Source: Chthoniobacteraceae bacterium | GTDB taxonomy: Bacteria; Verrucomicrobiota; Verrucomicrobiia; Chthoniobacterales; Chthoniobacteraceae | Length of the DNA: 64,000 nucleotides | Direction: 5' to 3' | Assembly (NCBI GenBank): GCA_035555975.1 | Contig: DATMFV010000135.1 | Coordinates: 1-64,000 of the forward strand | Shown here: positions 16,386-62,133 of the stretch, piece by piece | Numbering within the stretch: position 1 is the first letter of the stretch | Layout: every line of letters starts with the position of its first letter | Notes under the pieces: generated by a model | The model's database searches: none | Told to the model about the DNA's origin: nothing | Seen by the model: only the letters and a program-made list of their open reading frames with translations | Program-made: the position numbers and the translations under genes

Positions 16386-16466
16386 GCCTACCCGCGATGT
16401 TTGACCTCCGCGAACAGATCCAGCCCGCACTTGCATTCCCCGCCGATCCCCTGTAGGTGGTGCGCC

Positions 16467-24522: not shown

Positions 24523-24523
24523 T

Positions 24524-27500
24524 ATGAAACCGCTCCTTCTTCTCTTCATCCTCCCCGCCTCTCTCTTTGCCTCGTGGCGCTACGAAGAGGGAGGAACCCG
24601 GGTGGAGATCGACACGACCCGCACCGGCCAGTTGATCCATTGGGTCGATGACGGCAAAACGTGGGTCGACAACCGGGCGCAGGCCGCCCCGCCGCTGCAA
24701 TCCGGAAAGAAAAGTTTCCGCGCGGAGTCCGCCACGCAAGAGAAGGATGGCGTGGTGATCCAAGGAAAGCTCGGGGGTGAAACTCCGGCGACGCTCGCCT
24801 ACCGTATCGAGGAAGGGGGACGACGCCTCCGGGTCACCTTGACGACTGGCGGCAAGCACGATGAACTTTCCTGGAGCCTCCCGCTCGCCTTGCAGCCGCG
24901 CAAGCGGATCTGGTATCGGGGCGATCGCGGGCTGGAGTGGGACACGCGCCATTTCTACCAGTTCACGGCCTCGACCTTCACCGCCCTCCTTCCACGGCCC
25001 GACCGCAACGAGTGGCGTTACTTCGCGCTCGACCAGCGCAGGCCCGACGGCTTCCGGCTCTGGCGCTGCGAAAGCGCGAAAACCTCGCCGCTTCTGATGC
25101 AGGAAGGGGAGACTGCCGAGCCACGCGTGCAGATTTATGACGAACGGGGCGGTGTGAGCGTTGAAATTGCCGATACCGCCTCGCCGTATAGCCTGCGGGT
25201 CGATGCCGCCGGGGGAGCCGTGGCGCAGGTCGTCTTTCCCGGGCGGGAGCCGACGCATGAAATCGTCCTGAGCGTCCACCCTTCCGAAGCCGCCGTTCTC
25301 AAAGCGCGCGGGAAGCCGACCCGCATCGACCGCCCGGCTCCGGAAACGGCGTTGCAGGAGCCGGCGTGGCTGCGCGAAACGCCAGACGCCACCGGGACGC
25401 AATATGTCACCGGCGGTTATCCGTTTGCGGCGGGCACGCTCACGTCGATGGAGAACGTACGGGTCCAAGTCGCCGGAAATCCGGTTGCCGTGCAGGCCAA
25501 ACCACTCGCGTTCTGGCCCGATGGCAGCATCAAGTGGGGTCTTCTGACCTTTCCAATTGATCCCGCAAAAGCGGTCAAATCCGCAGAGCCGCCGCGCATC
25601 TCCTTTCGCACGGGACGCTTCCTCCCCGTCACGGTTTCCACGAAAAAAGAGAAAACAGCCGCGCCGGAAGCCGCATTGACGCTCCACGTCGCCCAACCTG
25701 CCGACGGAAAAGCGACCATCACCAACGGGAAGCTCGAAGCGACCCTCTCCACCGGCAACCGCTGGCTCGAAAGCCTCCGCTGGGAAGGCGTCGAGCAACT
25801 TTCGGGCGATCCGGCCGCACGGCTTGCCTATGCCGATTACCGGCTCGACCCGAAAGCCGTTGATCCGTTCGAGGGAACGCTTTCCGGCGGCGCGGACGAC
25901 CGGGGGACGCTCAAGGTCGATTCGCTGACCGTCGAGGAAAGCGGGCCGTTGCGCGCGATCATCCGGCTTGAAGGATTGACCGACAACCGGGAACCGACGC
26001 GGATCATCCTCCGGCTGGAGTTTCTCGCCGGGCGTCCGGAAATCCGGATCACCCACACCGCCGTCCTCCGGTTTCTTGACCCTCGCAAGATCTTCCTGAC
26101 CGGGCTGGGGCTGGAACTGCCGTTGACCCGCGAAGGAACGCTCCGTTTCGGCGGGTTTTCCGACAAGGCGGGCGGCGGCGCGGCCTCGCTGGTCCAGCAA
26201 ACGCCGCTCCAGAGCGAACGCCGCTCCGATGGCGACGCACCCCTCCCCGGCGGACGCGCCCCCGGCTGGGGAACCACGGGCACGCACTTCGCCATGATCC
26301 GCAACTTCTGGCAACAGGCTCCCCACGCGCTCACCTTTGACGCCAACCGGCTCCAGCTTGAACTCTGGCCCTCCGACGGTCCGCCAATGGACATGCGCCG
26401 CTATTCCAATGAACCGCACCGGGCGCAGGGGGAATCGGCCGCGCCCGATGCGTCGTGGGTCAAGGAAACCTACTACGCGAACGGTCCGGTCTATGGACTT
26501 TCGCGCACCCATGAACTCCTCCTCTCGTTCGCGCCGCAGGAAGCCGAAGCGCTCGCCGCCGATTTCCAGAGCCCTCCCCTGCTCTACGCCGGGTGGGAGC
26601 CGTACCGCGCCGCCACCCTCGCCGCCGCCGAAGAGAAAGATGCCCCCCGTGCCTGGGAGAACTGGACCCGGCTCGCGCAGTTCTGGCTCCACCACCGGGC
26701 GCTCTACGAGTGGTACGGTTTCTGGCATTTCGGCGATGTCCGCCACCGGTTCCGCGACGGGTATGGGCGGATTGCGACCCCCGAACGGCTGCTGGCCGAC
26801 CGTCCATGGGAACAAACCAAATGGAACAAGGCGGTCGATCAAGCCAGCGGCATCGGGCGCGGCGATCTGACGCAGGATTACCAGACCCAGAACGACTGGG
26901 CCTACGACAACGGGCGCTGGGGATGGTCGAACACCGAAGGGCTCCCCGGTCTGTTTTTCCAGAACGAATACCTGCGCCACGGCAACCGGAGCGTCTACTT
27001 CGCCGCCGAAGCAGCGGGCCGCCACGCACGCGATGTCGTCACGCGACAGGAGGGCTCCTACTTCGGGCTCGGCACCCGGCACGGCGTCCAGCACTGGAGC
27101 GATGGCAACCACGAGGAACGGCAGACCACGATCACCGAATACCGGCTTCACTATTTCCTGAGCGGCGAACCGCGCTCCCGTGAAGTTCTCGAGAACCTTT
27201 ATCAGGGAGTTTATTCCAGGAAAAACGTCAGCAGCGCCGCCGCGCACAGCGGCCGCCTCGGCGGGTTGCTCTTTCATTGGGAGGTGACCGGTTCCCCGGA
27301 GGAAGCCGAAGCGCTCCACCGCTACACCCGGTTTTTTCTCTCCCCGAAAGGTCTCTACGTCCACCCGGCCGTCCACTTCCCCGATCTGAAAGTCGGAGCC
27401 CGCGAAGGTCTCAACGACGGGACCATGTTTTTCCAGACTTTCGGCGGCATGCACGCCCTGCTGGAGTACCAGCAACTCACCAAAGACCCGGAAATCGCGG

Positions 27501-28045
27501 CTTCCGTGATCGCCATGGCGGACTCGGTGCTCAACGACCCGGAGATGAACGCGAAATACCGGCAGGGGAAAGCGTCCACCGGTAACATCTTCTGGCCCGC
27601 GATCGCTTTTGCCGCGCTGCACGCCCCGAAGCCGGAGCCGTACCGGGAACTGCTCGATGCGCTCGTGCGCAACGGCTACTGGAAGGCGACCTACCAGTCC
27701 GTCACCCGCAACCCCGCCCACTGGAGCGGTCCGACCGCGTTCCTCGACCGGAATGTCTCCGGCGGCATGTTCTGGAACAACTGGGCTCCCTATATGGTCC
27801 AGGCGATCGACGAAACGAAGCTCTGGGACGAAGCGATCGCCGCCGCGTTCCGTCAATACGAAGCGGAGGGAAGGCCGGAAACCCCCTGGCGGACCAGTTG
27901 GCAGTCGCAATACGATAACCACCCCGAACTGCGGGTCTACCTTCAGCAGCCATGGCTTGAGCCGTCACCCGCCGCCCATCAGGAAAGCCCGCCTCTTACT
28001 GCTCCGCCTGCTGGAGGTCCGAAAGCCGCCGATAGATCCCATTGA
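24524..28045 (+). CDS. Very large secreted hypothetical protein (1173 aa).
   Basis: ATG 1 bp after the DUF1559 stop; signal peptide MKPLLLLFILPASLFASW; protein-like composition throughout. I recognise no catalytic family. The track start at 24332 is rejected because it overlaps the upstream gene. Confidence 0.7.
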   Translation: MKPLLLLFILPASLFASWRYEEGGTRVEIDTTRTGQLIHWVDDGKTWVDNRAQAAPPLQSGKKSFRAESATQEKDGVVIQGKLGGETPATLAYRIEEGGRRLRVTLTTGGKHDELSWSLPLALQPRKRIWYRGDRGLEWDTRHFYQFTASTFTALLPRPDRNEWRYFALDQRRPDGFRLWRCESAKTSPLLMQEGETAEPRVQIYDERGGVSVEIADTASPYSLRVDAAGGAVAQVVFPGREPTHEIVLSVHPSEAAVLKARGKPTRIDRPAPETALQEPAWLRETPDATGTQYVTGGYPFAAGTLTSMENVRVQVAGNPVAVQAKPLAFWPDGSIKWGLLTFPIDPAKAVKSAEPPRISFRTGRFLPVTVSTKKEKTAAPEAALTLHVAQPADGKATITNGKLEATLSTGNRWLESLRWEGVEQLSGDPAARLAYADYRLDPKAVDPFEGTLSGGADDRGTLKVDSLTVEESGPLRAIIRLEGLTDNREPTRIILRLEFLAGRPEIRITHTAVLRFLDPRKIFLTGLGLELPLTREGTLRFGGFSDKAGGGAASLVQQTPLQSERRSDGDAPLPGGRAPGWGTTGTHFAMIRNFWQQAPHALTFDANRLQLELWPSDGPPMDMRRYSNEPHRAQGESAAPDASWVKETYYANGPVYGLSRTHELLLSFAPQEAEALAADFQSPPLLYAGWEPYRAATLAAAEEKDAPRAWENWTRLAQFWLHHRALYEWYGFWHFGDVRHRFRDGYGRIATPERLLADRPWEQTKWNKAVDQASGIGRGDLTQDYQTQNDWAYDNGRWGWSNTEGLPGLFFQNEYLRHGNRSVYFAAEAAGRHARDVVTRQEGSYFGLGTRHGVQHWSDGNHEERQTTITEYRLHYFLSGEPRSREVLENLYQGVYSRKNVSSAAAHSGRLGGLLFHWEVTGSPEEAEALHRYTRFFLSPKGLYVHPAVHFPDLKVGAREGLNDGTMFFQTFGGMHALLEYQQLTKDPEIAASVIAMADSVLNDPEMNAKYRQGKASTGNIFWPAIAFAALHAPKPEPYRELLDALVRNGYWKATYQSVTRNPAHWSGPTAFLDRNVSGGMFWNNWAPYMVQAIDETKLWDEAIAAAFRQYEAEGRPETPWRTSWQSQYDNHPELRVYLQQPWLEPSPAAHQESPPLTAPPAGGPKAADRSH

Positions 28046-35843: not shown

Positions 35844-36953
35844 TTAACCCTTCGCCCGGCTTTCCGGTGACACGCAGGGTTCTTCCGCGAGCCGCATGGT
35901 TCCCGGAATGGCCACCGGCGGAAGCGACCGGGCGCTGCGGCTCACGCGCGCCTCAAAGCAATCGACCAGCGCCCTGGCTTCCTCCCTTCGGCAGACTTCA
36001 TACCGATGCACCGGCAGGCTGAAGTGAAGGGGGACATCGGCGGTGGTTTTACACACGATTTCCATCTCCCGGGGGATGTCGAGGTGTGACTGGCGCAGAG
36101 CCCTTGCCGCGCCTAGCATCAGGATGTCATCGAGCACCAGCACGCAATCCGGCACGTAATTCTTGCGTTGCCCTTTCCACTCCCCGGCGAGGTGTGTGGC
36201 GAGTTCGAACCCGCGATGCTCCAGGTCCGCGCCGAGCGACTCAACTTCGCGAATCTGGCAGCGCAGGAAGCCGTATCTGCGGACGCAGCGCCAGAGTTCG
36301 TCATCCTCCAGGAAGGATGGAAAATGCCTGCTGCCCTGCCGAAGGACGGCTATTTTCCGGCGGCCCCGTTCCGCGAGGAATTTCAGAGTCGTACGAATCA
36401 GGTGATTGGAGTCGCGATAGACATCTCCGCCCAGAAGCAGGGGGGCGTAGCGGACGGAGGGGCGACGGAAGGCGGTGTAAAGCTCCGAGAAACGGTTGAG
36501 ATGGCACCCGATTTCCAGATAGCCGACCGGATCCGCCATCGCGAACTGCCGGTGGAACGGCTCGATGAGCTTTTCGTAATCCACCTCTCCGCACTGGAAG
36601 AGGGAGCAGAGATTGTCCGCCACCGTGAGTCCGTAGCCGCGCCGGTGCAGTTCCTCCCGGGTCCGCTCCACCAGCATCCGGTTGGAATGGGCGATCTCCA
36701 GGTGGATGTTGTTCCAGAAAAGCATCATCGCATTGGGCGTGCGCCGTTTTTTGAGGAGAATTGTCCCCTGCTTCGGCTTGCGGCTCAGGTAGCCCCGCGC
36801 GGCGAGCGATGAGAGGGCGTGGTGTACCTCCTGGCTTTTCAGGCCGAGCTGCGCGGCCAGTTCCGCCGTGTTCGGCAGTTTGCTTCCCGGTTTCCAGCCG
36901 TGATCGGCGATGGCCCGGAGAAGCGCTTCTTCCGGAGTTTCTTTGGTTTTCAA
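35844..36953 (-). CDS. GntR-family HTH regulator fused to a LacI-type sugar-binding domain.
   Basis: C-terminal (as written N-terminal) wHTH LPNTAELAAQLGLKSQEVHHALSSLAARGYL; 369 aa. Confidence 0.7.
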   Translation of the reverse strand: MKTKETPEEALLRAIADHGWKPGSKLPNTAELAAQLGLKSQEVHHALSSLAARGYLSRKPKQGTILLKKRRTPNAMMLFWNNIHLEIAHSNRMLVERTREELHRRGYGLTVADNLCSLFQCGEVDYEKLIEPFHRQFAMADPVGYLEIGCHLNRFSELYTAFRRPSVRYAPLLLGGDVYRDSNHLIRTTLKFLAERGRRKIAVLRQGSRHFPSFLEDDELWRCVRRYGFLRCQIREVESLGADLEHRGFELATHLAGEWKGQRKNYVPDCVLVLDDILMLGAARALRQSHLDIPREMEIVCKTTADVPLHFSLPVHRYEVCRREEARALVDCFEARVSRSARSLPPVAIPGTMRLAEEPCVSPESRAKG

Positions 36954-37134: not shown

Positions 37135-38010
37135 ATGAACCGAACCCTCTTCCTCTCCGCGTATTTGCAAAACCCGTCCCCATTTTGCCGCCGAAAATTC
37201 CGCCGGTTCTGCGTCGGGGCGCTGTTTCTCCTTTCCAGCCTCCAGGCCGGTTTCAGCCAGCCGTTGATCGGGTACTCCCGGGAGTTCGACGGCGCGGAGG
37301 GAACGCTCCCAACCGGCTGGGTGGCTCAGGCGAGCACCAATGGGTACGCAGCCCAGAGCGGCGCAGGCACGCTCAATGTCGGCACGAACGCGGGAGGTTC
37401 GGGGATAGCATTGGCCGCTTTCAAGGGGGATTTCGGCCCGATTGAAAACGGCGTCGTGACCGATGCCACGCTCGAAACGGTATTGATCACCAGTTCCGGC
37501 GCGAACTGGGTCGGGCTGGCGGGGCGGGCGCAGGATGGGGATTCGGCGTCTCCCGGAGGCTATTATGCGCTGATCAACAGGAAGCAATCTTCGCTTGCCA
37601 TCTGGGATGCCGCGCCTTCCAGCAGCGGCACTTCCGCTGACGAGGCCCTGGCGCATGTCGCCATCGCTCCCGCGCTGACCAACAATACCCAATACCGGCT
37701 GATCCTCGACCTGCAGGGAAGCACGATCACGGCCTCTCTTTATTCTCTCGATGCGGAAGTCGGCGTGGACGATCCGCTTGCGACGGTCAGCGCCAACAGT
37801 ACGCTGTACGGCTCGGGCCTGACCGGTTTCTGGGGCTTTTACGGTGGCGCGAGCCGTTCCACCCGTTACGAGAGCTTTACCATCACCACCATTCCGGAAC
37901 CATCCGCCGCCGCGCTCGGGAGCCTGATCTTTACCGCCGGAGCGGTGGTGCTGGGCCTCCGGGGAAAAAAGCTGCGGCCCGCCGGGCGATTCCTCCCCTC
38001 CCGGGATTGA
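37135..38010 (+). CDS. PEP-CTERM domain protein.
   Basis: Signal peptide, then the C-terminus TTIPEPSAAALGSLIFTAGAVVLGLRGKKLR. The track's TTG start at 37036 is possible but the ATG at 37135 is preferred. Confidence 0.75.
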   Translation: MNRTLFLSAYLQNPSPFCRRKFRRFCVGALFLLSSLQAGFSQPLIGYSREFDGAEGTLPTGWVAQASTNGYAAQSGAGTLNVGTNAGGSGIALAAFKGDFGPIENGVVTDATLETVLITSSGANWVGLAGRAQDGDSASPGGYYALINRKQSSLAIWDAAPSSSGTSADEALAHVAIAPALTNNTQYRLILDLQGSTITASLYSLDAEVGVDDPLATVSANSTLYGSGLTGFWGFYGGASRSTRYESFTITTIPEPSAAALGSLIFTAGAVVLGLRGKKLRPAGRFLPSRD

Positions 38011-38019
38011 AAGGCCGCC

Positions 38020-38802
38020 ATGGCAAGCCTCCGCCTCCCCCCATCGTCCCGTGGCGACCATGGTCTCACGCTGGTCGAACTGCTGGTTGCCATCGCCTGC
38101 ATTGCCGTGCTCGCCATCATCCTTTATCCGGTGGCGGGAACCCTCCGGGGCCACAACGCCGTTGCCAGATGCCTTTCCAACCTGCGGCAACTCGGCGCGG
38201 GGATTCACCTCTACGCCGCGGACCATGGAGGGAGCCTTCCGCCCTCCCATGTGGATGAAGGGATCATCGCCCCCGGCGTGGCGGAGCGGCGGTGGGACCA
38301 GTTTCTGCAAAATGCCGATCCGTCCAATTACAAGGGAGGGGGTGTTTTGCCCAACGAAAACCTTTCCAACCGTCCTGACGTTCTGACGGTCTACAACTGC
38401 CCCGCCAATCCTTACCGCCTCGGCAACCGCTGGAACGCCCCGAGTTATGCCTATAACGGAGCGCTGGGAAAAGACGAATGGCGCGTCCGGGTTGCAAACC
38501 TTCCTCATCCGGCCATGACCGTCATGCTGGTCGACGCGGGAGTGCGTAATGACATGTCGACGCCGCCGGAGCTTGGTCCTCCCAAAAATCTCTGCTACTG
38601 CACCCTCTATGGCGGCAGCACGTTTGCATGGGAACGCTCGGTCAACTTCGAGGTTCACCATGGGCGCGCCCATTTCCTCATGGTGGATGGGCACGTGGAA
38701 AGCCTGGATCGGGAAACCGTTCGCCAACGCGGCGCGGAGAAAACCCTCCTCTGGTCGCGCGATAACCTCGCCATCTCCGGCGCCGAAAAAGGGAGATGGT
38801 AG
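38020..38802 (+). CDS. Prepilin-type N-terminal plus DUF1559 protein.
   Basis: GLTLVELLVAIACIAVLA … HHGRAHFLMVDGHVE. Confidence 0.85.
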   Translation: MASLRLPPSSRGDHGLTLVELLVAIACIAVLAIILYPVAGTLRGHNAVARCLSNLRQLGAGIHLYAADHGGSLPPSHVDEGIIAPGVAERRWDQFLQNADPSNYKGGGVLPNENLSNRPDVLTVYNCPANPYRLGNRWNAPSYAYNGALGKDEWRVRVANLPHPAMTVMLVDAGVRNDMSTPPELGPPKNLCYCTLYGGSTFAWERSVNFEVHHGRAHFLMVDGHVESLDRETVRQRGAEKTLLWSRDNLAISGAEKGRW

Positions 38803-38806
38803 CCCC

Positions 38807-38861
38807 TCAAATCGTTCACTTCCCTTTATGTCAAATCGTTCACTTCCCTTTATGTCAAATC
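38807..38861 (+). repeat. 24-bp tandem direct repeat, 2.3 copies, spanning the start codon of the DUF4838 gene.
   Basis: TCAAATCGTTCACTTCCCTTTATG x2, then a partial TCAAATC. This gives in-frame ATGs at 38828 and 38852 (MSNRSLPF-MSNHCR…). Confidence 0.85.
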
Positions 38862-40900
38862 ATTGCCGAATCGCCATTTTTCTTGCCGTCCTTGCTTTTC
38901 TTCCTCCCCTTCTTGCGGCGGAGAAGCCGCCGGTATTTACGGTAGTAGAGGATGGCGCTCCGGCGGCGGTGATCGTGGCGGACGTTCCCGAAAAGGCGAA
39001 CGAGGCGGTGCGGGAGGGCGTCGGCCGGGCGTGTGAGATGATGCGTTTTGCCGTGGAACGGGCCACGGGGGCGAAGCTGGAGATCATCCCGGCCACGGGT
39101 GCCATTCCCGAGGGGAAAAGGGCGATTCTCATCGGCGGCGGCCGCCGGGCGAAAGCGGCGGCGGTGGAGATGAGGCCGCTGCCGGTCGAAGGGTACGGCG
39201 TCATCGTCCAGCCGGAGCGGTGCGTGCTTTACGGCGATCTCGCTGCCTTTGAGACGGAGGACCCCCGCCCCAAATACCCCGAATACCCCGCGCCGTGGGC
39301 GGCCACCCCGTTCTTTGCCGTGGCGGAAATCGTGCAAAGCCGGTGGCATGGCCGCTGGCTCTGGCCGGGGCCGGACGGCTTCGCGATACCCGCGCAAAAA
39401 AATCTCTCCCTGGCCGTGGGGGACGAAACCTTCCGGCCCAAGCTCCGGATTCGCTGGTTTTCCGGGCCGAGAGTCGCCCCCGACGGCACCGGCATCCGCG
39501 ATAAAAAGCGGTACATCGTCGCACCGGACCAGACGGAAGCATGGGACCACTCCATGCGGGAACTGGCCGACTGGTATTACTTCCACCGGTTCGGCTCCCG
39601 GCTGCTGCGCGGCTCCCAGCATAGCTTCCATCACTGGTGGGAAAAATATCACGCCGCCGAGCCGGACCTTTTTGCCCAGCCGCCTCCCGGCTTCCAACAG
39701 CCGTGGTCCCGGCCCGACCGGGTGAAGCTTCGCGACGGCAATCCGAAAGTGTGGGAACGCATTCTGGAGGAATGGCGCGCCGCCGGGCGACCTGCGCAGT
39801 GGGGCATCGGCCCGAATGACGGCAACGGCTTCTGCACCGCGCCGGAAAGCATGGCGCTCGACGAACCGCCCAACCAGGACCCCGAAACGGTCTGGCGCGG
39901 CGACGGCAATCTTTCCGCGCGCTACAGCCGCCTCTGGAGCCGGATTCTGGAGCAGGTGCGCGAGGAAAACCCGCAAGCCGAGTGGACCACGCTGATCTAT
40001 GGTTGCTACAACAGCCCTCCGGCTCAGGGTGTGGATTTGCACAACCTTCTCGGGGCGTTCGTCCACGGGTGGACTCCCGCTGCGCGGACAAGTTGGAGCG
40101 CCTGGCGGAACGCGGGCGCCCGCCTTTACCTGCGGCCCAACTGGTTCCACATCGGCTCGGCCGCCCCATACATCCAGCCGCATGCCATGGGGAGTTTCAT
40201 CCGCTGGACAATCGAAAACGGCAGCCTCGGCTTCTACTTCGACGGGTTGGAAGGCCAATGGGCCAATCAGGGGCTCACCTACTACCTGATCGCCCGGCTC
40301 GGCGAAGACCCAAAGCTGACGGTTGACGCCATCACGGATGAATACACTTCCGCCTTTGGCGCGGCAAAGCCGCTGATCGCGGAGTACCTCCGCTATTGGG
40401 AAGACCACGCCACCGCGCTGGCGTATCCGATTCCCGTGGGCGGTTCGCTTTCCGTCAGTTCGGAAAGCCGCTATGAACAACTGGTGCGGGAAAAAGGGAT
40501 ACCGAAGCATCCGCTCGGCGGCAGCCACCACGCGCTTCCCTACTTCTACGGCGCGGACGTGGTGGAACCGGCGCAGGCTCTTTTGCAGCGGGCCGCGGAA
40601 GCCGTCGGGGACGACCGCCCCGAGGTGCGCCGGCGGGTCCGTTTCCTGCAACTCGGGCTGGAGCACCTCATCCTGACCCGGGACGCCGTTGCCCTTGCCT
40701 TCAAAGTGCGGGACAACCCTTCCGCAGAAAACCGGGAGGCGTTCCTGCAAAAACGGAAGGAACTGCGCGCCTTCCGCAAAAAGGTAACGCCGCTCAACGT
40801 CGTCTCCGAGGTTATCAGCAACAATGAGGAGCGGAGGCGCAACAGCCCGGCCACCGGCGCGCGCATCCTGCCCGAGCGACTGGAAGACGGGGGAATTTAG
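38828..40900 (+). CDS. DUF4838-family secreted protein (putative glycan-active), paralog 1. An alternative start lies at 38852.
   Basis: Signal peptide MSNHCRIAIFLAVLAFLPPLLAA. Conserved blocks FHHWWEKYH…PNDGNGFC… are shared with the 45076 paralog. Two in-frame ATGs arise from a 24-bp tandem duplication. Confidence 0.7.
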   Translation: MSNRSLPFMSNHCRIAIFLAVLAFLPPLLAAEKPPVFTVVEDGAPAAVIVADVPEKANEAVREGVGRACEMMRFAVERATGAKLEIIPATGAIPEGKRAILIGGGRRAKAAAVEMRPLPVEGYGVIVQPERCVLYGDLAAFETEDPRPKYPEYPAPWAATPFFAVAEIVQSRWHGRWLWPGPDGFAIPAQKNLSLAVGDETFRPKLRIRWFSGPRVAPDGTGIRDKKRYIVAPDQTEAWDHSMRELADWYYFHRFGSRLLRGSQHSFHHWWEKYHAAEPDLFAQPPPGFQQPWSRPDRVKLRDGNPKVWERILEEWRAAGRPAQWGIGPNDGNGFCTAPESMALDEPPNQDPETVWRGDGNLSARYSRLWSRILEQVREENPQAEWTTLIYGCYNSPPAQGVDLHNLLGAFVHGWTPAARTSWSAWRNAGARLYLRPNWFHIGSAAPYIQPHAMGSFIRWTIENGSLGFYFDGLEGQWANQGLTYYLIARLGEDPKLTVDAITDEYTSAFGAAKPLIAEYLRYWEDHATALAYPIPVGGSLSVSSESRYEQLVREKGIPKHPLGGSHHALPYFYGADVVEPAQALLQRAAEAVGDDRPEVRRRVRFLQLGLEHLILTRDAVALAFKVRDNPSAENREAFLQKRKELRAFRKKVTPLNVVSEVISNNEERRRNSPATGARILPERLEDGGI

Positions 40901-40978
40901 TTACGGACCTCCGCGTCCGCCGCCCGGTTTTGAGTCGATGCGGAAGCCCCAAGTGCGGCGCGCGCCATCGAAGGCGTT

Positions 40979-42286
40979 TTACCCAAGTGAAGACGAATGG
41001 TCGAGCGCTGATCCCGACCAGTTGGCCCGCGCGACCCGCAGGATATTGCCGCCGACCACCTTGGCGATCGTTTCGTCGCTGTGTCCTCTCTGCACCATGC
41101 CGACGGTGAAAAGCGGCCAGTTCGTCCACGCCAGGCTTTCGACCTGCCGCGGCTGGCTCCAGAGATGTTCATGAAGCAGCGGGTCCTTGGGCGGCCAGAG
41201 CGATTCCCAGCGCGCACGGGTCTTGAGGCGGAAGCGGGCCTTTTCCGATGCTGCCGGAGCGGCAATGCTGCGGTAGGCGCGGTCGGTGCCGATCGTCACC
41301 GCATCCGCCCCGAAAGTCTTCACCAGGTAGTCGATGTGATCAAGAAACGCCGTGATGTCGCCGCAGCCGCCGAGAAACGCGGGGACATTGGTGACCCCGA
41401 TCGTCCCGCCGGTGTCGACCACGGCCCGGATCACCTCGTCCGGCTTGGCGCGGATGTGGTGGTTGATGGCGTCGGCCACCGAGTGGCTGACCACCACCGG
41501 CCGGGTGGAAACGCGCGCGGCGTCCAGACAGGTCTGCCAGCCGGTATGTGCGAGGTCGACAATCACCCCGAGGCGGTTCATCTCGCGGATGGCCGCCTGG
41601 CCAAAATCGCTCAACCCGCCGTCGGTCGGCTCGCCGCAGCCGTCGCCCATCGGGTTGCGCCGGTTGTAGGTCAGGTGCATCATCCGCACTCCCAACTGCG
41701 CAAAAACACGGACGAGGCCGAGTTCCTCCTCCGGCGTCTGCTGATCGCCGACGAGCGGAATCCCGTTGCCGGTAAGGTAAATGGTCCGTTTCCCCGCCTT
41801 GAAAGCGGCTTCGATCCCATCGACATCGTGCGCGCGGGCCAGAAGCTCCGGCATGGAATCGATCAGGTGAACATACCGCGCCAGACGCTTGAGGAGGCGG
41901 GTCGGCTGGTTGCCCTCCTCCCCGGCGTTGAGGAAAATGCAGGACACGCCGGCGGCTTCCCACGCTTCGCGGTACTCCCGGCGAAGCTCCGCAGTTCGCA
42001 GCCAGCCGAGCATGCCGTGCTCCTCATGAAGATCCCGCAGTTCCGTACTCGACGCATTTTCATCAAGCAGCGCGTTGCTCTCCTCCGGCACTACCGGCGC
42101 GTGCAACCCGAGGCCGTACGACTCCGCCACCAACACCTGCGAGTGGAGTTCCAGCCCGTGTTCGAGCTGGCTGGCCGACGGTTTCAGGAGATCAAGGGCG
42201 ACATTGCGGGCGTGTTCGATGGCAGCGTTCATGAAAAAGCAATAGAGACAAAAGGCGAGTAAGAGGGGCTGGCCGGTCGCTGTCAA
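40979..42286 (-). CDS. Membrane dipeptidase (peptidase M19). An alternative internal start lies at 42232.
   Basis: M19 blocks (…VVDLAHTGW…, …VVVSHS…, …IGTDRAY…); 435 aa. Confidence 0.75.
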   Translation of the reverse strand: MTATGQPLLLAFCLYCFFMNAAIEHARNVALDLLKPSASQLEHGLELHSQVLVAESYGLGLHAPVVPEESNALLDENASSTELRDLHEEHGMLGWLRTAELRREYREAWEAAGVSCIFLNAGEEGNQPTRLLKRLARYVHLIDSMPELLARAHDVDGIEAAFKAGKRTIYLTGNGIPLVGDQQTPEEELGLVRVFAQLGVRMMHLTYNRRNPMGDGCGEPTDGGLSDFGQAAIREMNRLGVIVDLAHTGWQTCLDAARVSTRPVVVSHSVADAINHHIRAKPDEVIRAVVDTGGTIGVTNVPAFLGGCGDITAFLDHIDYLVKTFGADAVTIGTDRAYRSIAAPAASEKARFRLKTRARWESLWPPKDPLLHEHLWSQPRQVESLAWTNWPLFTVGMVQRGHSDETIAKVVGGNILRVARANWSGSALDHSSSLG

Positions 42287-42438
42287 GCGAATCGGATGCA
42301 GGGAACACCGACGCGCATCCGCCCATCAGTCCGGAGGTCCGGTTTTTCCGGCGGGAAGATAAATTTCCACTGGCAGTCTGCGGGGTTTGCTTCCACTCTT
42401 CCACTCTGCTCCTGCGCCAGGTTTCCTGAAAAATACCG

Positions 42439-43197
42439 ATGCCCACTTCCCTTGACCCGCTTCCACCCGGTTTCCGGCTGATCGCTCATCGCGGCGCTTC
42501 CGTCCGCGCGCCGGAAAACACCGCGGCGGCTTTCCGTGCCGCGTACGAAACCGGCAGCCGCGAGGTTGAAACCGATGTGCAGTTGACGAGCGACGGGGTG
42601 GCCATCCTCTGCCACGATAAGACGCTCGTCCGCTACGGCCATGGCGACCGGCATGTCGAAGCCTGTTCGTACGGCGAACTGGCGGAACTCGACTTCGGCT
42701 CATGGTTTGACCCGGCCTTTTCGGAGGAGCGGGTCGTGCGGCTCAGTGACTTTCTGGCGGAGTTTTCCATGCTCCTGCGGCTCCATATCGAACTCAAGGG
42801 GGCCTCGCCGACCCTCGCCGCCGCCACGCTCGACCTGGCGCAGCAATACGGCGCGGCGTCGCAGTCGGTCTTCACCTCGTTTTCCTTTGAGCAACTGGAA
42901 CGGGCCCGGGCTCACCGCTCGCAGGCGCGGCTCGGGTGGCTGGTGACCGAAATCAACGACGAAGTGCTCGGGAAAGCGCGCGAACTCGGCCTTTTCCAGA
43001 TCTGCCCCAAAGCCGGAAACCTCACCGCCGACGCGATCAACCGCGCCCTGGAGGTCGTGCCGGAAGTCCGCGCCTGGGGCTGCCCGCGCCATCTCGAAGA
43101 GGCGCGCCTCTGTGTCCGCCGGCTTCAATCGACCGGGTGCAGCGGCATTACGATCGACGAGCCGCTCTGGATCGATCCCGGCACCCTCGCGGTCTGA
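42439..43197 (+). CDS. Glycerophosphodiester phosphodiesterase (GDPD family).
   Basis: LIAHRGAS…ENTAAAF … ETDVQLTSDGVAILCHD. Confidence 0.8.
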   Translation: MPTSLDPLPPGFRLIAHRGASVRAPENTAAAFRAAYETGSREVETDVQLTSDGVAILCHDKTLVRYGHGDRHVEACSYGELAELDFGSWFDPAFSEERVVRLSDFLAEFSMLLRLHIELKGASPTLAAATLDLAQQYGAASQSVFTSFSFEQLERARAHRSQARLGWLVTEINDEVLGKARELGLFQICPKAGNLTADAINRALEVVPEVRAWGCPRHLEEARLCVRRLQSTGCSGITIDEPLWIDPGTLAV

Positions 43198-43243
43198 CCA
43201 ACCCCGCCAGACCTTCCGCCGGATTTCACTCCCGAAAAACCGG

Positions 43244-43292
43244 TTGACAAAAAGCTGAACCGTTTTAGTATTTAGCTAAATCGGTTCAGCTT
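43244..43292 (+). promoter_or_regulatory. Sigma-70-like promoter (TTGACA-16-TAGTAT) overlapped by a 16-bp-arm imperfect palindrome, upstream of the LacI gene at 43315.
   Basis: AAGCTGAACCGTTTTA-gtatttagc-TAAATCGGTTCAGCTT; 15 of 16 arm positions are complementary. Confidence 0.45.
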
Positions 43293-43314
43293 TCATCGTT
43301 TTCCGCCCCTTTCC

Positions 43315-44361
43315 ATGGATACCCTTTCCCAACCGGTCACAATTCCCACCCTCCGGCATGTTGCCAAACAGGCGCGGGTCAGCCTTTCCACCGCCAGTTC
43401 CGTAATGAACGGCCATGCCGAGCGGTTGCGCATCTCCGCCAAGACGCAGGAGCGGGTCCTGACCACGGCCGAGCAGCTCGGTTACCAGCCAAACCCGCTG
43501 GCGGCGGGACTTCGCCTCAAACGCTCGCAGTCGATCGGCGTCCTCTGGTCGTTTGCCGGTCCCCACGGTTCCAGCCAACTGGTGCGCAACTTCAGCGGGC
43601 AGGCGATGCAGCATGGCTACAGCACACTGGTCTATGACACTCTTAACGACCCGGAACTGATCGTCAGCCAACTCCGCGCCGCCGCCAAAAACCGGGTTGA
43701 CGGCGTGGTCTTTGCCATCGGGCGCGCTTCCATCAAGCCGTTCCTCCCCTTGCTCGAAAAACTGCCCCACGTCGTTCTGGTAACGGCCCGACCGTACGAC
43801 GATCTGCCGTTCCTCCAGATCATCCATTGCATGACCCGCGCCTTGCACGACGCCGTCCACCACCTGGTCGCCGCAGGGCGGGACCGCTTCGCGTTTATCG
43901 GCAGCCTCCCGGGCAACACCTCCAAAACGGAAGCGATCAGTGCCGCGCTCAAAGCCGCCGGACTCTCCCGGCCGTTGAGTCTTTTCCATTGTTCGGAAGC
44001 TTTCCCCTTTTCCCAGAAAGAGGAGGACTGGAGTTTTCGCACCCACCCCGAGTTTACCTCCGCCAACGCCATTTTCGCCGCCACCGACGAAATCGCCGCC
44101 GCCGTCACCTCCGCCCTTCATGAGGCGGGGCGGAAGGTGCCCGAAGAGGTCGCCGTGGTCGGCTTCAACAACAGCCCGTTTGCCTCCCTTTTCACACCGC
44201 CGCTTGCCAGCATCCAGCGGTTTGACGATCTCCTCGCCCACCGCGCGATGGAGCGGATCATCGCCGCCATTGAAGAGCGGCACGATGCCTTTCCCCATAC
44301 CGAAACCATCAACATGGAATTCATCTGGCGCTCCTCCGCCGGTGCCCCTCCCGCCCCATGA
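43315..44361 (+). CDS. LacI-family transcriptional regulator.
   Basis: HTH PTLRHVAKQARVSLSTASSVMNG plus a sugar-binding domain. Confidence 0.8.
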   Translation: MDTLSQPVTIPTLRHVAKQARVSLSTASSVMNGHAERLRISAKTQERVLTTAEQLGYQPNPLAAGLRLKRSQSIGVLWSFAGPHGSSQLVRNFSGQAMQHGYSTLVYDTLNDPELIVSQLRAAAKNRVDGVVFAIGRASIKPFLPLLEKLPHVVLVTARPYDDLPFLQIIHCMTRALHDAVHHLVAAGRDRFAFIGSLPGNTSKTEAISAALKAAGLSRPLSLFHCSEAFPFSQKEEDWSFRTHPEFTSANAIFAATDEIAAAVTSALHEAGRKVPEEVAVVGFNNSPFASLFTPPLASIQRFDDLLAHRAMERIIAAIEERHDAFPHTETINMEFIWRSSAGAPPAP

Positions 44362-45053
44362 GCCTGCCCCTCCTCCCACGACGCCGGGCCGATGCCGTCT
44401 CCCTGACGGAAACGCTCGTCCTCCTGCTGGTCTTCGCATTTCTTGCCGCGCTGCTGCTGCCGGCCCTCTCCAATGCCCGCAGCAAGGCGGGGGTGATCGG
44501 CTGCCTCACTCACCTGCGTGCCTTTGGAGCGGCCTTTCACGCTTTTGCGGGCGATCACAACGGCCTCCTGCCACAGGATGAAGCCCCCCTGCCCCCTTCG
44601 GGAACCATCCGCAACTGGCCCCACCATGTCGGCTCCTACCTTTCCGTTCAGTACGGCACCTTTTCCACCGCATCGAATGAAACGATCGCCAAAAGCCCGT
44701 TTTACTGCCCGGCGGAGAAGGAAGTCGTCAAGCCGTGGATCTCCTACAGCATCAACCGGGAACTCAATCTGCGGCTCTTCGGCCAGGCGTCCTACATCCG
44801 GCTGCCCGAACTCGCCTCTCCCGCTCACTACGTGCTGCTGGCTGACTCCCACGCCTATTTTTACATCCCGAGCGACAGCCGCAAGAAAATGACCGAGTGG
44901 GCCGGGCTCACCCGCCGCCACAACGGTCAGCCCAACTTTCTTTACGCCGACGGGCATGCCGCCCCGTTTACCGAGAAACTTCTCGGCCTGAGCGATGCCG
45001 GAGGCAATGCCCCGCTTTACCGAAGCCTCTGGCAGGCGCGTTACCGCCCCTGA
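44358..45053 (+). CDS. Prepilin-like plus DUF1559 protein, with a degenerate N-terminal motif.
   Basis: SLTETLVLLLVFAFLAALL … RHNGQPNFLYADGHA. Start overlaps the LacI stop as ATGA. Confidence 0.7.
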   Translation: MSLPLLPRRRADAVSLTETLVLLLVFAFLAALLLPALSNARSKAGVIGCLTHLRAFGAAFHAFAGDHNGLLPQDEAPLPPSGTIRNWPHHVGSYLSVQYGTFSTASNETIAKSPFYCPAEKEVVKPWISYSINRELNLRLFGQASYIRLPELASPAHYVLLADSHAYFYIPSDSRKKMTEWAGLTRRHNGQPNFLYADGHAAPFTEKLLGLSDAGGNAPLYRSLWQARYRP

Positions 45054-45075
45054 AATCTTCCGGAATTTTTTCCCC

Positions 45076-47052
45076 ATGCCGATCTTTCGCCGACATTTAC
45101 TTCCTTTTCTGCTGCTGGCCTGCGCTCTCCTGCTTTCCGCCTGCCAACCCGTTCTGGAAAGAAACCGGGAGGCTGCCGTGCCGCTTGTCCGCGACGGTCG
45201 CGCCACGAGCGCCATTCTTCTTCCGAAGAATGCCGACCCTGCGTTGCGCAAACTCGCCGCCTCTTTTGCCGCCACCGTCCGCCGCTCGACCGGGGCGGAA
45301 ATCCCGCTGCTAGCCCGGGAGGAAGCCGCCGCCCTCCCTCCGGGCCATACCCGGGTCTATCTCGGCCCCGGTCCGGAAGCCGAAACCGCCGGGCTGCGTC
45401 TGGAGGAGATTCCCGAAGAAGGCTACCGGCTTGTCGTACAGGAAGGGGCGGTTTTCGTCCTCGGGCGCGATACCGACTCATCGCAGCCGACCCGCTGGGC
45501 GCTCAACCGGATTCTGGAGGAACAACTCGGCGTCCGCTGGCTCTGGCCCGGTGAACTCGGCACCTACGTTCCCAGGCATGCAAATCTGGAGCTTCCCCTC
45601 GCCGATCTCCGCTACCAGCCGCAGCTCTCCCTGCGCCGGTTACGGATCAGCGCCAACTCCCCGATCTCCACCGATGATCCTGTCCTGAACGAGCGGCTTT
45701 TGCGGGAAGCAAAGGAGTGGGCGGCCAACCACCAGTCCGGAAACCGTTCGCAAGCCCGCTTCGGGCATGCCTTCGTCCACTGGTGGGAAAAGTACGGCAA
45801 AGCCCATCCTGACTACTTCGCCGAACCTCCGCCCGATACGGAAAACCCGGCGCTCAAGCACCCTGATCGGGTCAAGCTCCGCCTCTCCAACCCGGCTGTC
45901 ATCGAGCAGATCGCCGCCGAATACCGCGAAGCGGGCAGCCCGCCGTACTGGAATGTCTGCCCCAACGACGGCGGCGGGTTCGATCTTTCCGAAGCGACCC
46001 GGGCGTGGGACATTCCGCAAGGCCAGTCTCCCGACGACATCTGGAGCGCCCGCGCCAACCTCACGCCCCGTTTCGTTGAATTCTGGAACCGGCTCCACCG
46101 GCGGCTAGCGGAGAGCAACCCGGAAGTCCGCCTCTCCACCTACGCCTACTATGCCTACAAAATCCCGCCGCCTGCCGAACGTCCGCTGACGGCGACCACC
46201 GCCATCGGCATCGTGCCGGGGTACAAGGACCAGGAACTCTGGGAAGGGTGGGCCGCACAGCCGGGGGTTGCGGAACTTTACCTGCGCCCCAACTGGGGAC
46301 ACATCGGCGCGAACGCCCCGTACCTGCCGCTCCGGGACATGGCCCGGTTTCTCAACTTTACCCGGAAACACAAAATGGCGGGGTTTGACCTCGACTCGAT
46401 CGTTGGCTTCTGGAGCACGCAGGGGCTCAACTACTACCTCTGGGCCCGGGCGCTCTCGCAGCCGGAAGTCTCCGTCGAAGCCGTGATCGAGGAGTATTGC
46501 TCCGCCTTCGGCGCGGGTGCGTCGCACATCCGGGCCTATTTCGACCACTGGCTGCGCCTGACGGACGATTACGCCTACCCCGAAACGTACGCCCTGCACG
46601 ACCCCGAGGCCGAACACGGCCGGTTCATGAAACTGGTCCGCGAGGGGAAGACGGAAGTCAACTTCGTGCGCGGGCCGCGCTACGCCCTTCCCTATCTCTA
46701 CACCGACGCCGTGCTGCAACCGGGCGAAGAACTGCTCGACAAGGCGCGCGCCGCCATTGGCGAAGGGGATGCCGAAGCCGCCGCGCGGGTGGAATTCCTG
46801 CGGGCCGGGCTGGAGGAACTGCGCGCCACGCGCGACCTCATCGCGCTGGCCCGGAGCCTCGGCCCCCGCCCCACTCCCGCGCAACTGGACGCGCTCCGGC
46901 AAAAAGACGAAGCGCTCGAAGCGATCCGCACCCGCCACACCGCCGGGCACGCCGTCTGGGGCGCACGCCTCACCCTTTACGAAAACCGCTATCGGGTTCC
47001 GATCCGCCCCAAAACCCTTCCCCTGCCCAGCCTGAACCTGGACGGGCTGTAA
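45076..47052 (+). CDS. DUF4838-family lipoprotein, paralog 2.
   Basis: MPIFRRHLLPFLLLACALLLSAC lipobox. FVHWWEKYGKAHPDYFAEPPP…PNDGGGFD… aligns with the 38828 gene. The track start at 44995 overlaps the upstream gene and is rejected. Confidence 0.75.
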   Translation: MPIFRRHLLPFLLLACALLLSACQPVLERNREAAVPLVRDGRATSAILLPKNADPALRKLAASFAATVRRSTGAEIPLLAREEAAALPPGHTRVYLGPGPEAETAGLRLEEIPEEGYRLVVQEGAVFVLGRDTDSSQPTRWALNRILEEQLGVRWLWPGELGTYVPRHANLELPLADLRYQPQLSLRRLRISANSPISTDDPVLNERLLREAKEWAANHQSGNRSQARFGHAFVHWWEKYGKAHPDYFAEPPPDTENPALKHPDRVKLRLSNPAVIEQIAAEYREAGSPPYWNVCPNDGGGFDLSEATRAWDIPQGQSPDDIWSARANLTPRFVEFWNRLHRRLAESNPEVRLSTYAYYAYKIPPPAERPLTATTAIGIVPGYKDQELWEGWAAQPGVAELYLRPNWGHIGANAPYLPLRDMARFLNFTRKHKMAGFDLDSIVGFWSTQGLNYYLWARALSQPEVSVEAVIEEYCSAFGAGASHIRAYFDHWLRLTDDYAYPETYALHDPEAEHGRFMKLVREGKTEVNFVRGPRYALPYLYTDAVLQPGEELLDKARAAIGEGDAEAAARVEFLRAGLEELRATRDLIALARSLGPRPTPAQLDALRQKDEALEAIRTRHTAGHAVWGARLTLYENRYRVPIRPKTLPLPSLNLDGL

Positions 47053-47083
47053 AAGAAACCACAACCCCTCGACTCCAATCCTC

Positions 47084-48037
47084 ATGAAAAAGACCCTGCT
47101 CCGAACCACCGTCTCCCTCCTCGCCACGGCGGCGCTGACGCTGCCCGCAGCCGCCAATACGCTGCTCGTCAACTGGGGAGGCAACTATTTTGTTGGAGAA
47201 TCCGCCACCGACCTGAACATCCTGACCAACTACGGGACGCAGGAACCGATCTCGGGCGGCTTTCTTCTCCCCTACAGTACCGTCTCCACGATGTCGCCCG
47301 ACAAACACGCCCGATATGATGCCGACGGCACTTCCGCCACCTTCTACGGAGCCGTCCAGATTACCAGCCAAAGCGGCACCACCACCGATGCGCAGGTGCG
47401 CATCCTGCGCAACAACGACCAGAACCGCATCCACATCAATACCGCTGTCGGGAACGCCTCCAATCACACCTTCACGCGGGGGCTTTTCTTCTGGAAGAAG
47501 GAAGATTTCCTCAATGGTTTTGCAGATCAGCCCAACCTTTCGCTGGCTGATTTTCAGAAGCTGACCCTCAACACCGCCAACGCCCGCAGCAATCAAAATA
47601 CCGCCATCCGTTTTGCCGTCCTGAGCGACGGCGTCTGGTATCTCTCGCAAACCCAGCAAACCGGCACCTACTTCAACAGCGCGCCGGGTGAATTTCTTCT
47701 CGCCGTCCCGGTGGAGGAGAACTGGGGCATCTGGAACCCGGCCACCTCCCCGCTCGACCTGCCGCCCACGACGTTTGACAAGCCCGGCTCCGAGTTGGAC
47801 AACATCACCGCCATCGGCTTCTACTTCGATGGCACCTACACCGGGAGCAACTCGGCTTCGTTTGATTTCCAGAGCTTCTCAGTGACCGTCATCCCCGAAC
47901 CCGGCGCCGCCGCCCTCCTCGGCCTCCCTGTGCTATTGCTCGCGGCCTCCCGCTTCAAACGCCGCAGGCAGGCGCTGCCGCCCCTGCCCTCGCCCTCGCC
48001 CTCGCAACAGGCCGGAGCTTTCCCAGGAGTCCATTGA
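47084..48037 (+). CDS. PEP-CTERM domain protein.
   Basis: Signal peptide MKKTLLRTTVSLLATAALTLPAAA; C-terminus VIPEPGAAALLGLPVLLLAASRFKRRR. Confidence 0.8.
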   Translation: MKKTLLRTTVSLLATAALTLPAAANTLLVNWGGNYFVGESATDLNILTNYGTQEPISGGFLLPYSTVSTMSPDKHARYDADGTSATFYGAVQITSQSGTTTDAQVRILRNNDQNRIHINTAVGNASNHTFTRGLFFWKKEDFLNGFADQPNLSLADFQKLTLNTANARSNQNTAIRFAVLSDGVWYLSQTQQTGTYFNSAPGEFLLAVPVEENWGIWNPATSPLDLPPTTFDKPGSELDNITAIGFYFDGTYTGSNSASFDFQSFSVTVIPEPGAAALLGLPVLLLAASRFKRRRQALPPLPSPSPSQQAGAFPGVH

Positions 48038-52210: not shown

Positions 52211-52302
52211 TGGCGGAAGGGGCGGGATTCGAACCCGCGGTGAGGTTTCCCCCACGTTCGATTTCGAGTCGAGTGCCTTAAACCGGACTCAGCCACCCTT
52301 CC
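52211..52302 (-). tRNA. tRNA-Ser(CGA), type II with a long variable arm, including the encoded CCA.
   Basis: Reverse complement: GGAAGGG TG GCTGAGTCCGGTTTAAGGC A CTCGA CUCGAAA TCGAA CGTGGGGGAAACCTCACC GCGGGTTCGAATCCCGC CCCTTCC G CCA. The 7-bp acceptor, D and T stems pair, the T-loop is TTCGAAT and the anticodon loop is CT-CGA-AA. Confidence 0.85.
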
Positions 52303-55873: not shown

Positions 55874-55903
55874 CCGCTGCCGACCACTCCGGAAAAACTC
55901 CCC

Positions 55904-56878: not shown

Positions 56879-56903
56879 AAGAAAAAGAACCTTTCCCTTC
56901 CCC

Positions 56904-62131: not shown

Positions 62132-62133
62132 TC

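Follow-up and report, generated by a model that had tools for sequence, protein, structure and literature searches.

The DUF1559 proteins, also known by their H-X9-DG motif, are among the largest families of unknown function in the Planctomycetota, Verrucomicrobiota and Lentisphaerota, phyla that break down much of the complex polysaccharide in soil, water and guts and that, to our knowledge, lack the SusC/SusD machinery of glycan use in the Bacteroidota. Here, we describe a recurring gene module built around these proteins in a 64,000-nucleotide stretch of the metagenome-assembled genome of a Chthoniobacteraceae bacterium (assembly GCA_035555975.1, contig DATMFV010000135.1, positions 1 to 64,000), hereafter the window. 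Each of five modules (i to v) combines a regulator gene, a PEP-CTERM protein gene, a pilin-like DUF1559 gene and at least one gene for a large secreted protein, and the safest statement on them is that they are sugar-regulated glycan-utilisation cassettes. On balance, we favour the fuller reading that the five are independently regulated and substrate-inducible, with the pilin as a subunit that can be exchanged on a pilus or pseudopilus machine common to them all; they would be functional counterparts of polysaccharide utilisation loci.

The closest described systems each share part of this design. The polysaccharide utilisation loci (PULs) of the Bacteroidota and generic carbohydrate-active enzyme (CAZyme) clusters likewise combine one regulator with candidate surface glycan-binding proteins and secreted glycosidases or lyases, and the PULs likewise occur as many paralogous loci per genome, each probably serving one glycan, in which the binding parts diverge fast and the enzymes are conserved. 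The PULs possess SusC and SusD, whereas the cassettes here have a pilin-like and an exosortase-sorted protein in their place, and no SusC-like TonB-dependent receptor or SusD family appeared in the Pfam matches of 43 scanned window proteins. A pilin-type protein is also tied to polysaccharide use, with a head proposed to bind the polymer, in the xylan-induced, xylan-binding type IV pilin CbPilA of Caldicellulosiruptor bescii (bioRxiv 10.1101/614800) and in the dextran-binding fibres of Planctomycetes (PMC5394234), for which the 'fishing-rod' hypothesis is summarised in PMC12078418. Such glycan-binding pili have one pilus locus and one major pilin, whereas here a pilin paralogue accompanies each enzyme operon and the assembly machinery would lie elsewhere.

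Two further systems resemble single components. The type II pseudopilins GspG-K share with the cassette pilins a class III signal peptide, Glu+5, a hydrophobic N-terminal helix and Sec-exported neighbours, but the cassette pilin head is about twice the size of GspG, and the pilin genes are scattered in enzyme operons rather than gathered in a gsp operon. The tripartite tail and signal peptide of PEP-CTERM/exosortase sorting (Haft et al. 2006, PMC1569441) are shared by all five partner proteins; the classical association of such proteins is with exopolysaccharide biosynthesis loci (PMC1569441), whereas here their genes stand beside a pilin and a glycosidase-like gene in a cassette that looks catabolic.

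The DUF1559 family of the Planctomycetes–Verrucomicrobia–Chlamydiae (PVC) superphylum (SBP_bac_10, PF07596; TIGR04294) is defined by prepilin and H-X9-DG motifs, both shared by the five cassette pilins. It is described as an expansion of unknown function with 68-91 copies per planctomycete genome (PMC10632474, PMC8567305, PMC2754498), its genes often flanked by signal-peptide genes (PMC8567305); the descriptions that we found make no link to sugar regulators, CAZyme-like genes or PEP-CTERM partners. In a 2024 survey, the CAZyme clusters of the Planctomycetota were uncharacterised and one third of their genes unassigned (PMC11131199). We found no account of a regulator-pilin-enzyme unit or of a PEP-CTERM cassette in the literature on DUF1559, SBP_bac_10, H-X9-DG and PEP-CTERM/pilin/CAZyme, which bears out an earlier, sequence-only reading of the window that knew of no such system. 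The component families and the DUF1559 expansion are known already; what is apparently new is the cassette, as a type of glycan-utilisation cluster.

The four-part module in the window and beyond

About 48 genes were called in the window, which has a G+C content of 62%, using a gene caller self-trained on codon usage together with a filter on G+C by codon position; 43 of the proteins were scanned against Pfam and NCBIfam. The sequence-only reading had described a recurring, operon-like string of PEP-CTERM, DUF1559 and large secreted enzyme-like genes, and its gene content and coordinates were confirmed, as were the tight junctions: genes overlap as ATGA at 23728 and 44358 and are separated by 1 bp at 24523 and by 2 bp at 62132-62133, all exact, with 9-31 bp at the others. 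Its count of five copies needed the flanks, which were examined past the window start (L093, same contig) and past its end (L086). Module v has no DUF1559 gene in the window, in line with the listing of that reading itself, but the missing pilin gene lies about 770 bp past the window start, directly after the LamG gene (L093 15938-16669), giving the order PEP-CTERM, LacI, LamG (1300 aa), H-X9-DG pilin (243 aa) and beta-helix protein. As the rest of module iv is likewise present beyond the window end, all five modules are complete.

Position within the window is by itself suggestive only: with four pilin and five PEP-CTERM genes placed at random among 48, all the pilins fall within two genes of a PEP-CTERM gene with P = 0.016, a modest result. 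Block duplication was rejected as the origin of the modules, since BLASTP relates only the DUF4838 pair of modules i and ii (33% identical), the pilins and the helix-turn-helix (HTH) regions of the LacI regulators. The pilins are divergent and the PEP-CTERM proteins of the five modules show no detectable relationship in all-against-all BLASTP; the modules are thus parallel assemblies from large families and not copies of one block.

The decisive evidence, over and above this chance test, is conservation in relatives. Homologues of the module iii pilin (42-64% identical) occur in five further loci of the same assembly or related genomes, each accompanied by a regulator, a large enzyme and a protein with a PEP-type tail. 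Two of the enzymes are PcRGLX-like (one with an SGNH esterase), one belongs to glycoside hydrolase (GH) family 42 and two are Pel9A-like beta-helix proteins. Three DUF4838 homologues, picked only for the extent of the surrounding DNA, all adjoin a pilin, a PEP-type protein and a regulator, in the order PEP-enzyme-pilin at one locus and pilin-PEP-enzyme at the other two. Counting a second cassette in L089, nine modules in relatives and the five in the window all keep the four-part set, with permuted order and non-homologous partners, so that the module described in the sequence-only reading extends to related genomes. Heparinase II/III-like proteins are also found among the enzymes of the relatives' modules. 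These cassettes were found via homologues of the window's own modules and so do not sample the lineage at random.

To assess generality, one can turn to the other phyla. A degenerate-pattern scan of one genome per species gave 80 DUF1559 loci from Verrucomicrobiota, Planctomycetota, Lentisphaerota, Kiritimatiellota, Omnitrophota and others; neighbours were profiled for 77 central genes, with genes at least four positions away as the "far" reference. Our home-made gene caller reproduced the window gene map but may have missed or mis-started genes in other loci, and the offset statistics there are therefore approximate. The gene directly downstream (+1) lies on the same strand as the DUF1559 gene in 60 of 71 cases and encodes at least 600 aa in 26 of 71, against 45 of 382 far genes (odds ratio [OR] 4.3, p 1.4e-6). 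A Pfam scan of 57 such +1 proteins found the domains CBM9, LamG, DUF4838, beta-helix, GH2_N, sialidase, GH20b, GH94 and GH9, as well as pectate-lyase-like and GFO/IDH/MocA domains. Upstream, 45 proteins at -1 include nine with Peripla_BP_3, six with LacI and four with GntR. Among 122 distant control genes, none of these neighbour families is among the most frequent, the related AraC-type HTH excepted (3 of 122 distant genes; 1 of 45 at -1). A local hidden Markov model (HMM) of the LacI/GntR sensor domain found 10 of 70 genes at -1, 7 of 64 at -2 and 3 of 55 at -3, compared with 2 of 431 far genes (OR 16, p 7e-7).

The PEP-CTERM partner behaves differently. The sequence-only reading had called its pairing with DUF1559 obligate, which fails outside this lineage: a PEP-CTERM gene lies within two genes at 11 of 65 taxonomically assigned PVC loci and at none of 17 Lentisphaerota/Kiritimatiellota loci, and its enrichment is weak by regular expression (OR 2.4, p 0.016) and not significant by HMM. 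Across the PVC loci, co-occurrence stands for the large downstream protein and falls short for PEP-CTERM, which the 77 loci rule out as a universal partner; it is an addition in some lineages and cassette families. With regulators enriched upstream and large secreted proteins downstream, the general unit is a regulator, then a pilin, then a secreted protein related to carbohydrates. Both the carbohydrate theme and the sugar regulators were missed in the sequence-only reading, and these are the strongest and most general context signals.

Components of the cassettes and neighbouring genes

Every module has its own regulator of a sugar-related type. In module v, this is a LacI-family protein (3147..4241, minus strand; Pfam LacI and Peripla_BP_3; 364 aa in L093); in module ii, a second LacI-family protein (43315..44361, plus strand; Pfam LacI and Peripla_BP_1/3), whose stop codon overlaps the pilin start (ATGA). 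Module i has a divergent regulator with a GntR HTH and a periplasmic-binding-protein (PBP)-like sensor (35844..36953, minus strand; Pfam GntR and Peripla_BP_3), and module iv a divergent GntR regulator just past the window end (L086). The AraC-family regulator of module iii (20417..22150, plus strand; Pfam HTH_18/HTH_AraC, with NCBIfam AraC/RhaR-like matches below cut-off) is kept upstream of the orthologous module in L083. This protein of 577 aa has two AraC-type HTH regions, at about residues 259-296 and 499-575, an architecture also kept in L083; it looks like a tandem or fused AraC. One promoter-like site (43244-43271) precedes the module ii LacI gene, a single consensus match and weak evidence; that site apart, a terminator and promoter scan of 35.5-48.7 kb did no better than on shuffled sequence.

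The pilin-like genes of the window lie at 23728..24522 (module iii, plus strand, 264 aa, its start overlapping the stop of the PEP-CTERM gene as ATGA), 38020..38802 (module i, plus strand, 260 aa), 44358..45053 (module ii, plus strand, 231 aa) and 62134..62853 (module iv, minus strand, 239 aa). The type IV pilin or pseudopilin N-terminus noted in the sequence-only reading is borne out: the prepilin cleavage/methylation motif (G|F-T-L-x-E) scores above cut-off (PF07963, TIGR02532) in three of the four, and the divergent module ii protein has a degenerate form, A|VSLTE, with Ala at -1 and Glu+5 kept (by eye). The module v pilin reads GFSLVE. TIGR04294 is at or above cut-off in three window pilins, those of modules i and iv among them, and weak, sub-threshold, in the module ii protein; H-X9-DG can be seen by eye in all five. 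PF07596, with a gathering threshold of 23.3 bits, gives 32.1, 26.6 and 28.2 bits for three window pilins, modules i and iv again included, and a protein identical to the module iii product is named 'H-X9-DG-CTERM domain-containing protein' by NCBI. The module ii pilin has no Pfam match; it scores 120 bits to a family HMM built from 77 members, and its orthologue adjoins a DUF4838 gene in L091. That orthologue has apparently been called from the mature helix (MTLVELLV...).

Window pilins are 23-28% identical to one another in all-against-all BLASTP; for their heads the figure is 24-30%. In an alignment of 61 homologues, Glu+5, a Cys-Cys pair, H226, D236, G237, H238 and E240 are invariant or nearly so. 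The predicted fold, a long N-terminal alpha-helix packed on an antiparallel beta-sheet, is that of a type IV pilin in the model, and a PDB sequence search gave matches to the N-terminal helix only. The two-lobed alpha/beta fold of a periplasmic binding protein, suggested by the Pfam name SBP_bac_10, was rejected on this model. Also rejected were the Verru_Chthon cassette proteins C/D (TIGR02599, TIGR02596), which reach 12-13.5 bits against cut-offs of 70 and 256, over the N-terminal helix only. Near the module iii orthologue, on the other strand, L083 1-4722 holds three prepilin-type genes in a row, two of which match the DUF1559 HMM, together with genes for an AraC regulator and two PEP-CTERM proteins; this cluster may represent another sort of pilin set.

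The PEP-CTERM proteins all possess an N-terminal signal peptide and the PEP motif, hydrophobic helix and basic tail (by eye and local HMM). They are encoded at 4315..5166 (module v, minus strand, 283 aa; Pfam PEP-CTERM E 2.8e-5, TIGR02595; C-terminus PIPEPATLGLL...RRRKR by eye), 22190..23731 (module iii, plus strand, 513 aa; Pfam PEP-CTERM and PATR, TIGR02601), 37135..38010 (module i, plus strand, 291 aa; C-terminus TIPEPSAAALGSL...RGKKLR), 47084..48037 (module ii, plus strand, 317 aa; C-terminus VIPEPGAAALLGL...KRRRQ, with sub-threshold NCBIfam PEP-CTERM matches) and 62882..>64000 (module iv, minus strand; Pfam PATR and PEP-CTERM; full length 520 aa in L086). The module iii protein carries an autotransporter-type beta-strand repeat and has an orthologue in L083 (499 bits). 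Three of the five match PF07589 or TIGR02595, two of them above the Pfam cut-off; two have no Pfam PEP-CTERM match, yet show IPEP, a hydrophobic helix and an Arg/Lys tail by eye. Variant tails occur in related cassettes, with IPEG or IPEA for IPEP followed by the usual helix and basic cluster (L085 7180-7986; L090 5213-5998), and these escape Pfam PEP-CTERM.

The module i protein illustrates how divergent these partners can be. A word-based search of 5.8 billion proteins returned only the protein itself, whereas 69 relatives, most of them 24-37% identical, came out of an exhaustive HMMER search of 1.84 billion representatives; 14 of 41 relatives score with Pfam PEP-CTERM. The family profile weakly matches the carbohydrate-binding module CBM66 of levanase (4b1l), and judging from this profile the body is a probable ConA-like/CBM66-like beta-sandwich.

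All of the large proteins begin with Sec or lipoprotein signal peptides, and in type they are carbohydrate-active: a lyase resembling polysaccharide lyase (PL) family 26, DUF4838 proteins, LamG proteins and a GH2-type sugar-binding domain. The PcRGLX-like protein of module iii (24524..28045, plus strand, 1173 aa; Pfam PcRGLX_1st/2nd/3rd) matches the PL26 exo-rhamnogalacturonan lyase PDB 5xq3 with E 1.7e-17. DUF4838 proteins (Pfam DUF4838) are encoded in module i (38828..40900, plus strand, secreted) and module ii (45076..47052, plus strand, with a lipoprotein-type signal peptide). An AF2 model of the latter (pLDDT 92.6) has GH115 alpha-glucuronidase as its top Foldseek match in the PDB (E 9e-12), followed by GH84, GH20 and GH67, with a probability of 1.00 but template modelling scores of only 0.37-0.47 and an identity of 11-12%. 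DUF4838 is, on this model, probably an uncharacterised glycoside hydrolase family; for module i the glycoside-hydrolase-like fold is taken from that of module ii. Module v has a LamG-domain protein (2..3085, minus strand; Pfam Laminin_G_3; signal peptide by eye), cut by the window start. Module iv has two genes for secreted proteins of this group, one for a LamG and MG2-domain protein (57895..61119, minus strand, 1074 aa; Pfam Laminin_G_3 and MG2) and one for a HEAT-repeat protein with the GH2-type domain (61103..62131, minus strand; Pfam HEAT_2, Glyco_hydro_2_N and BetaGal_ABD2). NCBIfam gave no name to any of five large proteins, and a PDB sequence search found no match for DUF4838 or the module iv LamG protein. 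By the dbCAN definition, a CAZyme gene cluster needs one or more CAZyme genes and, no more than two genes away, another CAZyme, a transporter or a transcription factor (PMC11131199); here, regulators adjoin all five modules, and the enzymes are CAZyme-like by Pfam or fold only (PL26-like, GH115/GH20-like).

Several other features of the window were noted. An ABC importer (53918-57890; an SBP_bac_5 solute-binding protein and two permeases, with no adjacent ATPase gene) converges on the end of module iv and could be an uptake route for its products, or unrelated. The segment 48500-52560, with about 50% G+C against 62%, is a low-G+C island in which a GmrSD-type restriction endonuclease is encoded (49245-51398, minus strand). 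A tRNA-Ser(CGA) gene (52211-52302, minus strand) marks its end, and a DUF488 gene follows closely; the segment has the look of a defence island that was acquired horizontally and inserted at the tRNA. That tRNA, unrelated to the modules, was the only hit of the Rfam and tRNA scans. A PIN-domain toxin-like gene at 16008-16385 has no recognisable antitoxin gene called beside it; the open reading frame next to it (15789-16607, minus strand) has no Pfam match.

The role of the pilin-like protein

In the explanation that we favour, an inducer sugar would relieve or activate the sugar-sensing transcription factor (LacI, GntR-PBP or AraC), and the cassette would then be transcribed as a single unit. 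The Sec-exported PEP-CTERM protein, with a lectin-like beta-sandwich or beta-helix-repeat body, would be exosortase-anchored or displayed at the cell surface. Prepilin peptidase would cleave the type IV pilin-like protein, a conserved assembly helix with a large, fast-evolving H-X9-DG head, and the pilin would join a shared machine with its genes elsewhere, either a type IV pilus or a type II pseudopilus. Its head would be the cassette-specific module that, with the PEP-CTERM lectin-like protein, most likely binds the target glycan and holds or reels it to the envelope, and the glycan captured there would be cut by at least one large Sec-exported glycoside-hydrolase- or lyase-like protein. The analysis establishes the gene content, its tight linkage, the conserved set in permuted order, the enrichment of regulators and carbohydrate-active neighbours across PVC phyla and, as predictions, the pilin and glycosidase-like folds; we infer co-transcription, surface location, glycan binding by the pilin head and use of a shared machine.

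The division within the pilin itself, with a near-invariant hydrophobic assembly helix, Glu+5 included, and divergent heads, fits co-assembly on a common machine with specific heads. What those heads recognise can be approached through their partners. One pilin subfamily (about 40% identity) adjoins three unrelated folds, a PL26-like toroid, a Pel9A-like beta-helix and GH42, and is also paired with the SGNH esterase; these plausibly share pectin as a substrate class. Conversely, DUF4838 enzymes that are 43-47% identical to that of module ii have pilins and PEP-CTERM partners as dissimilar as random paralogues. Mirror-tree logic applied to pilin and enzyme gives a mixed picture, in which orthologous trios are co-inherited and deeper relationships are shuffled. 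Pilins and PEP-CTERM partners that diverge far faster than the enzymes are what one would expect of exposed ligand-binding proteins, and their divergence beside a conserved DUF4838 suits ligand binding better than recognition of the conserved enzyme. The single subfamily with three enzyme folds of plausibly shared substrate, along with the precedents of CbPilA and the planctomycete fibres, tilts the balance the same way, and from these comparisons the head more likely binds glycan than serves as a cargo adaptor.

The adaptor is nevertheless the alternative that survives best, although we consider it unlikely. It holds that the H-X9-DG protein is a minor pseudopilin that recruits the neighbouring enzyme, and perhaps the PEP-CTERM protein, in the periplasm and pushes this cargo through a shared type II secretin. 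An N-terminus similar to those of GspG/H/I/J and ComG pilins, neighbouring large proteins with Sec or lipoprotein signal peptides like those of type II substrates, the presence of just one pilin in each cassette, with translational coupling between pilin and enzyme in module iii, and a large secreted protein directly downstream as the most general PVC feature would all suit such a role. The NCBIfam models of the Gsp pseudopilins GspG/H/I/J, however, score 12.8-17.6 bits, far under their cut-offs of 44-89, and cover only residues ~11-75, that is, the N-terminal helix. A pseudopilin dedicated to one cargo, as the sequence-only reading had proposed, does not agree with three unrelated enzyme folds beside one subfamily, and DUF4838 enzymes about 45% identical to each other with such unlike pilins are hard to square with recognition of an enzyme surface. 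In several cassettes, two or three secreted proteins share one pilin, and Glu+5 is kept, unlike in the tip pseudopilin GspK.

Quite improbable, in our view, is an inner-membrane-anchored periplasmic binding or sensor protein, in which the pilin-type signal is a tether for a periplasmic domain that binds oligosaccharide products and passes them to a transporter or signals to the regulator. Archaeal sugar-binding proteins with pilin-type signal peptides offer a parallel, the DUF1559 genes adjoin sugar regulators, and an ABC importer adjoins module iv. Pfam files the family as solute-binding (SBP_bac_10), an assignment repeated in PMC2754498 and PMC4807772, and proteomics of Tuwongella places DUF1559 proteins in detergent-soluble membrane fractions (PMC8567305). 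Set against this, Glu+5 is needed for filament packing and, with the assembly helix, is near-invariant, which argues that the protein is built into a filament and does more than tether a domain to the membrane; only one of the five cassettes has a transporter beside it, and regulators of the LacI, GntR and AraC types work in the cytoplasm, where they detect small molecules themselves. Equally improbable is the absence of any dedicated partnership, with adjacency arising only from dense secreted-protein genes in two hugely expanded families: the modest in-window permutation result, the weak or absent PEP-CTERM enrichment across PVC loci and the reported even spread of the family round the Tuwongella genome (PMC8567305) would agree with it, but not the four-part set kept in five cassettes and nine relatives' modules despite permuted order and non-homologous partners, the start/stop overlaps, or the strong positional enrichment of regulators upstream and large carbohydrate-related proteins downstream.

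Several points weigh against the glycan-capturing pilin that we favour. The pectin theme draws on family names and six loci, the CBM66 match is marginal (E 0.0025), and no catalytic domain is recognised in the LamG protein of module iv or that of module v. The pilin heads could also have diverged fast under phage or predator pressure, or through relaxed constraint. No pilus or type II secretion machinery, prepilin peptidase, ATPase, secretin or exosortase gene was found in the window or its flanks, which makes the shared machine an assumption. Most DUF1559 loci elsewhere have no PEP-CTERM gene, so this partner is not essential to pilin function. Two DUF1559 genes of Planctopirus limnophila are essential (PMC10632474), a misfit with a purely nutritional role for the whole family.

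Meaning for the DUF1559 family

A bolder extension of the glycan-capture reading, which we offer tentatively, is that the H-X9-DG pilins may be the PVC superphylum's counterpart of SusC/SusD, with interchangeable substrate-specific heads, each from its own sugar-regulated enzyme operon, on one shared retractile pilus or pseudopilus that would fish polysaccharide to or through the outer membrane. It is possible, at a similarly tentative level, that exosortase-displayed lectin-like proteins cooperate with them in the Chthoniobacterales and some Planctomycetes. If true, this would account for the polymer-binding fibres of Planctomycetes as well as for a family of 50-100 paralogues in each genome.

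The position of DUF1559 genes after a sugar regulator and before a secreted carbohydrate-active protein makes the family a marker for glycan-utilisation loci, and it gives this large, uncharacterised family a testable carbohydrate-related role.

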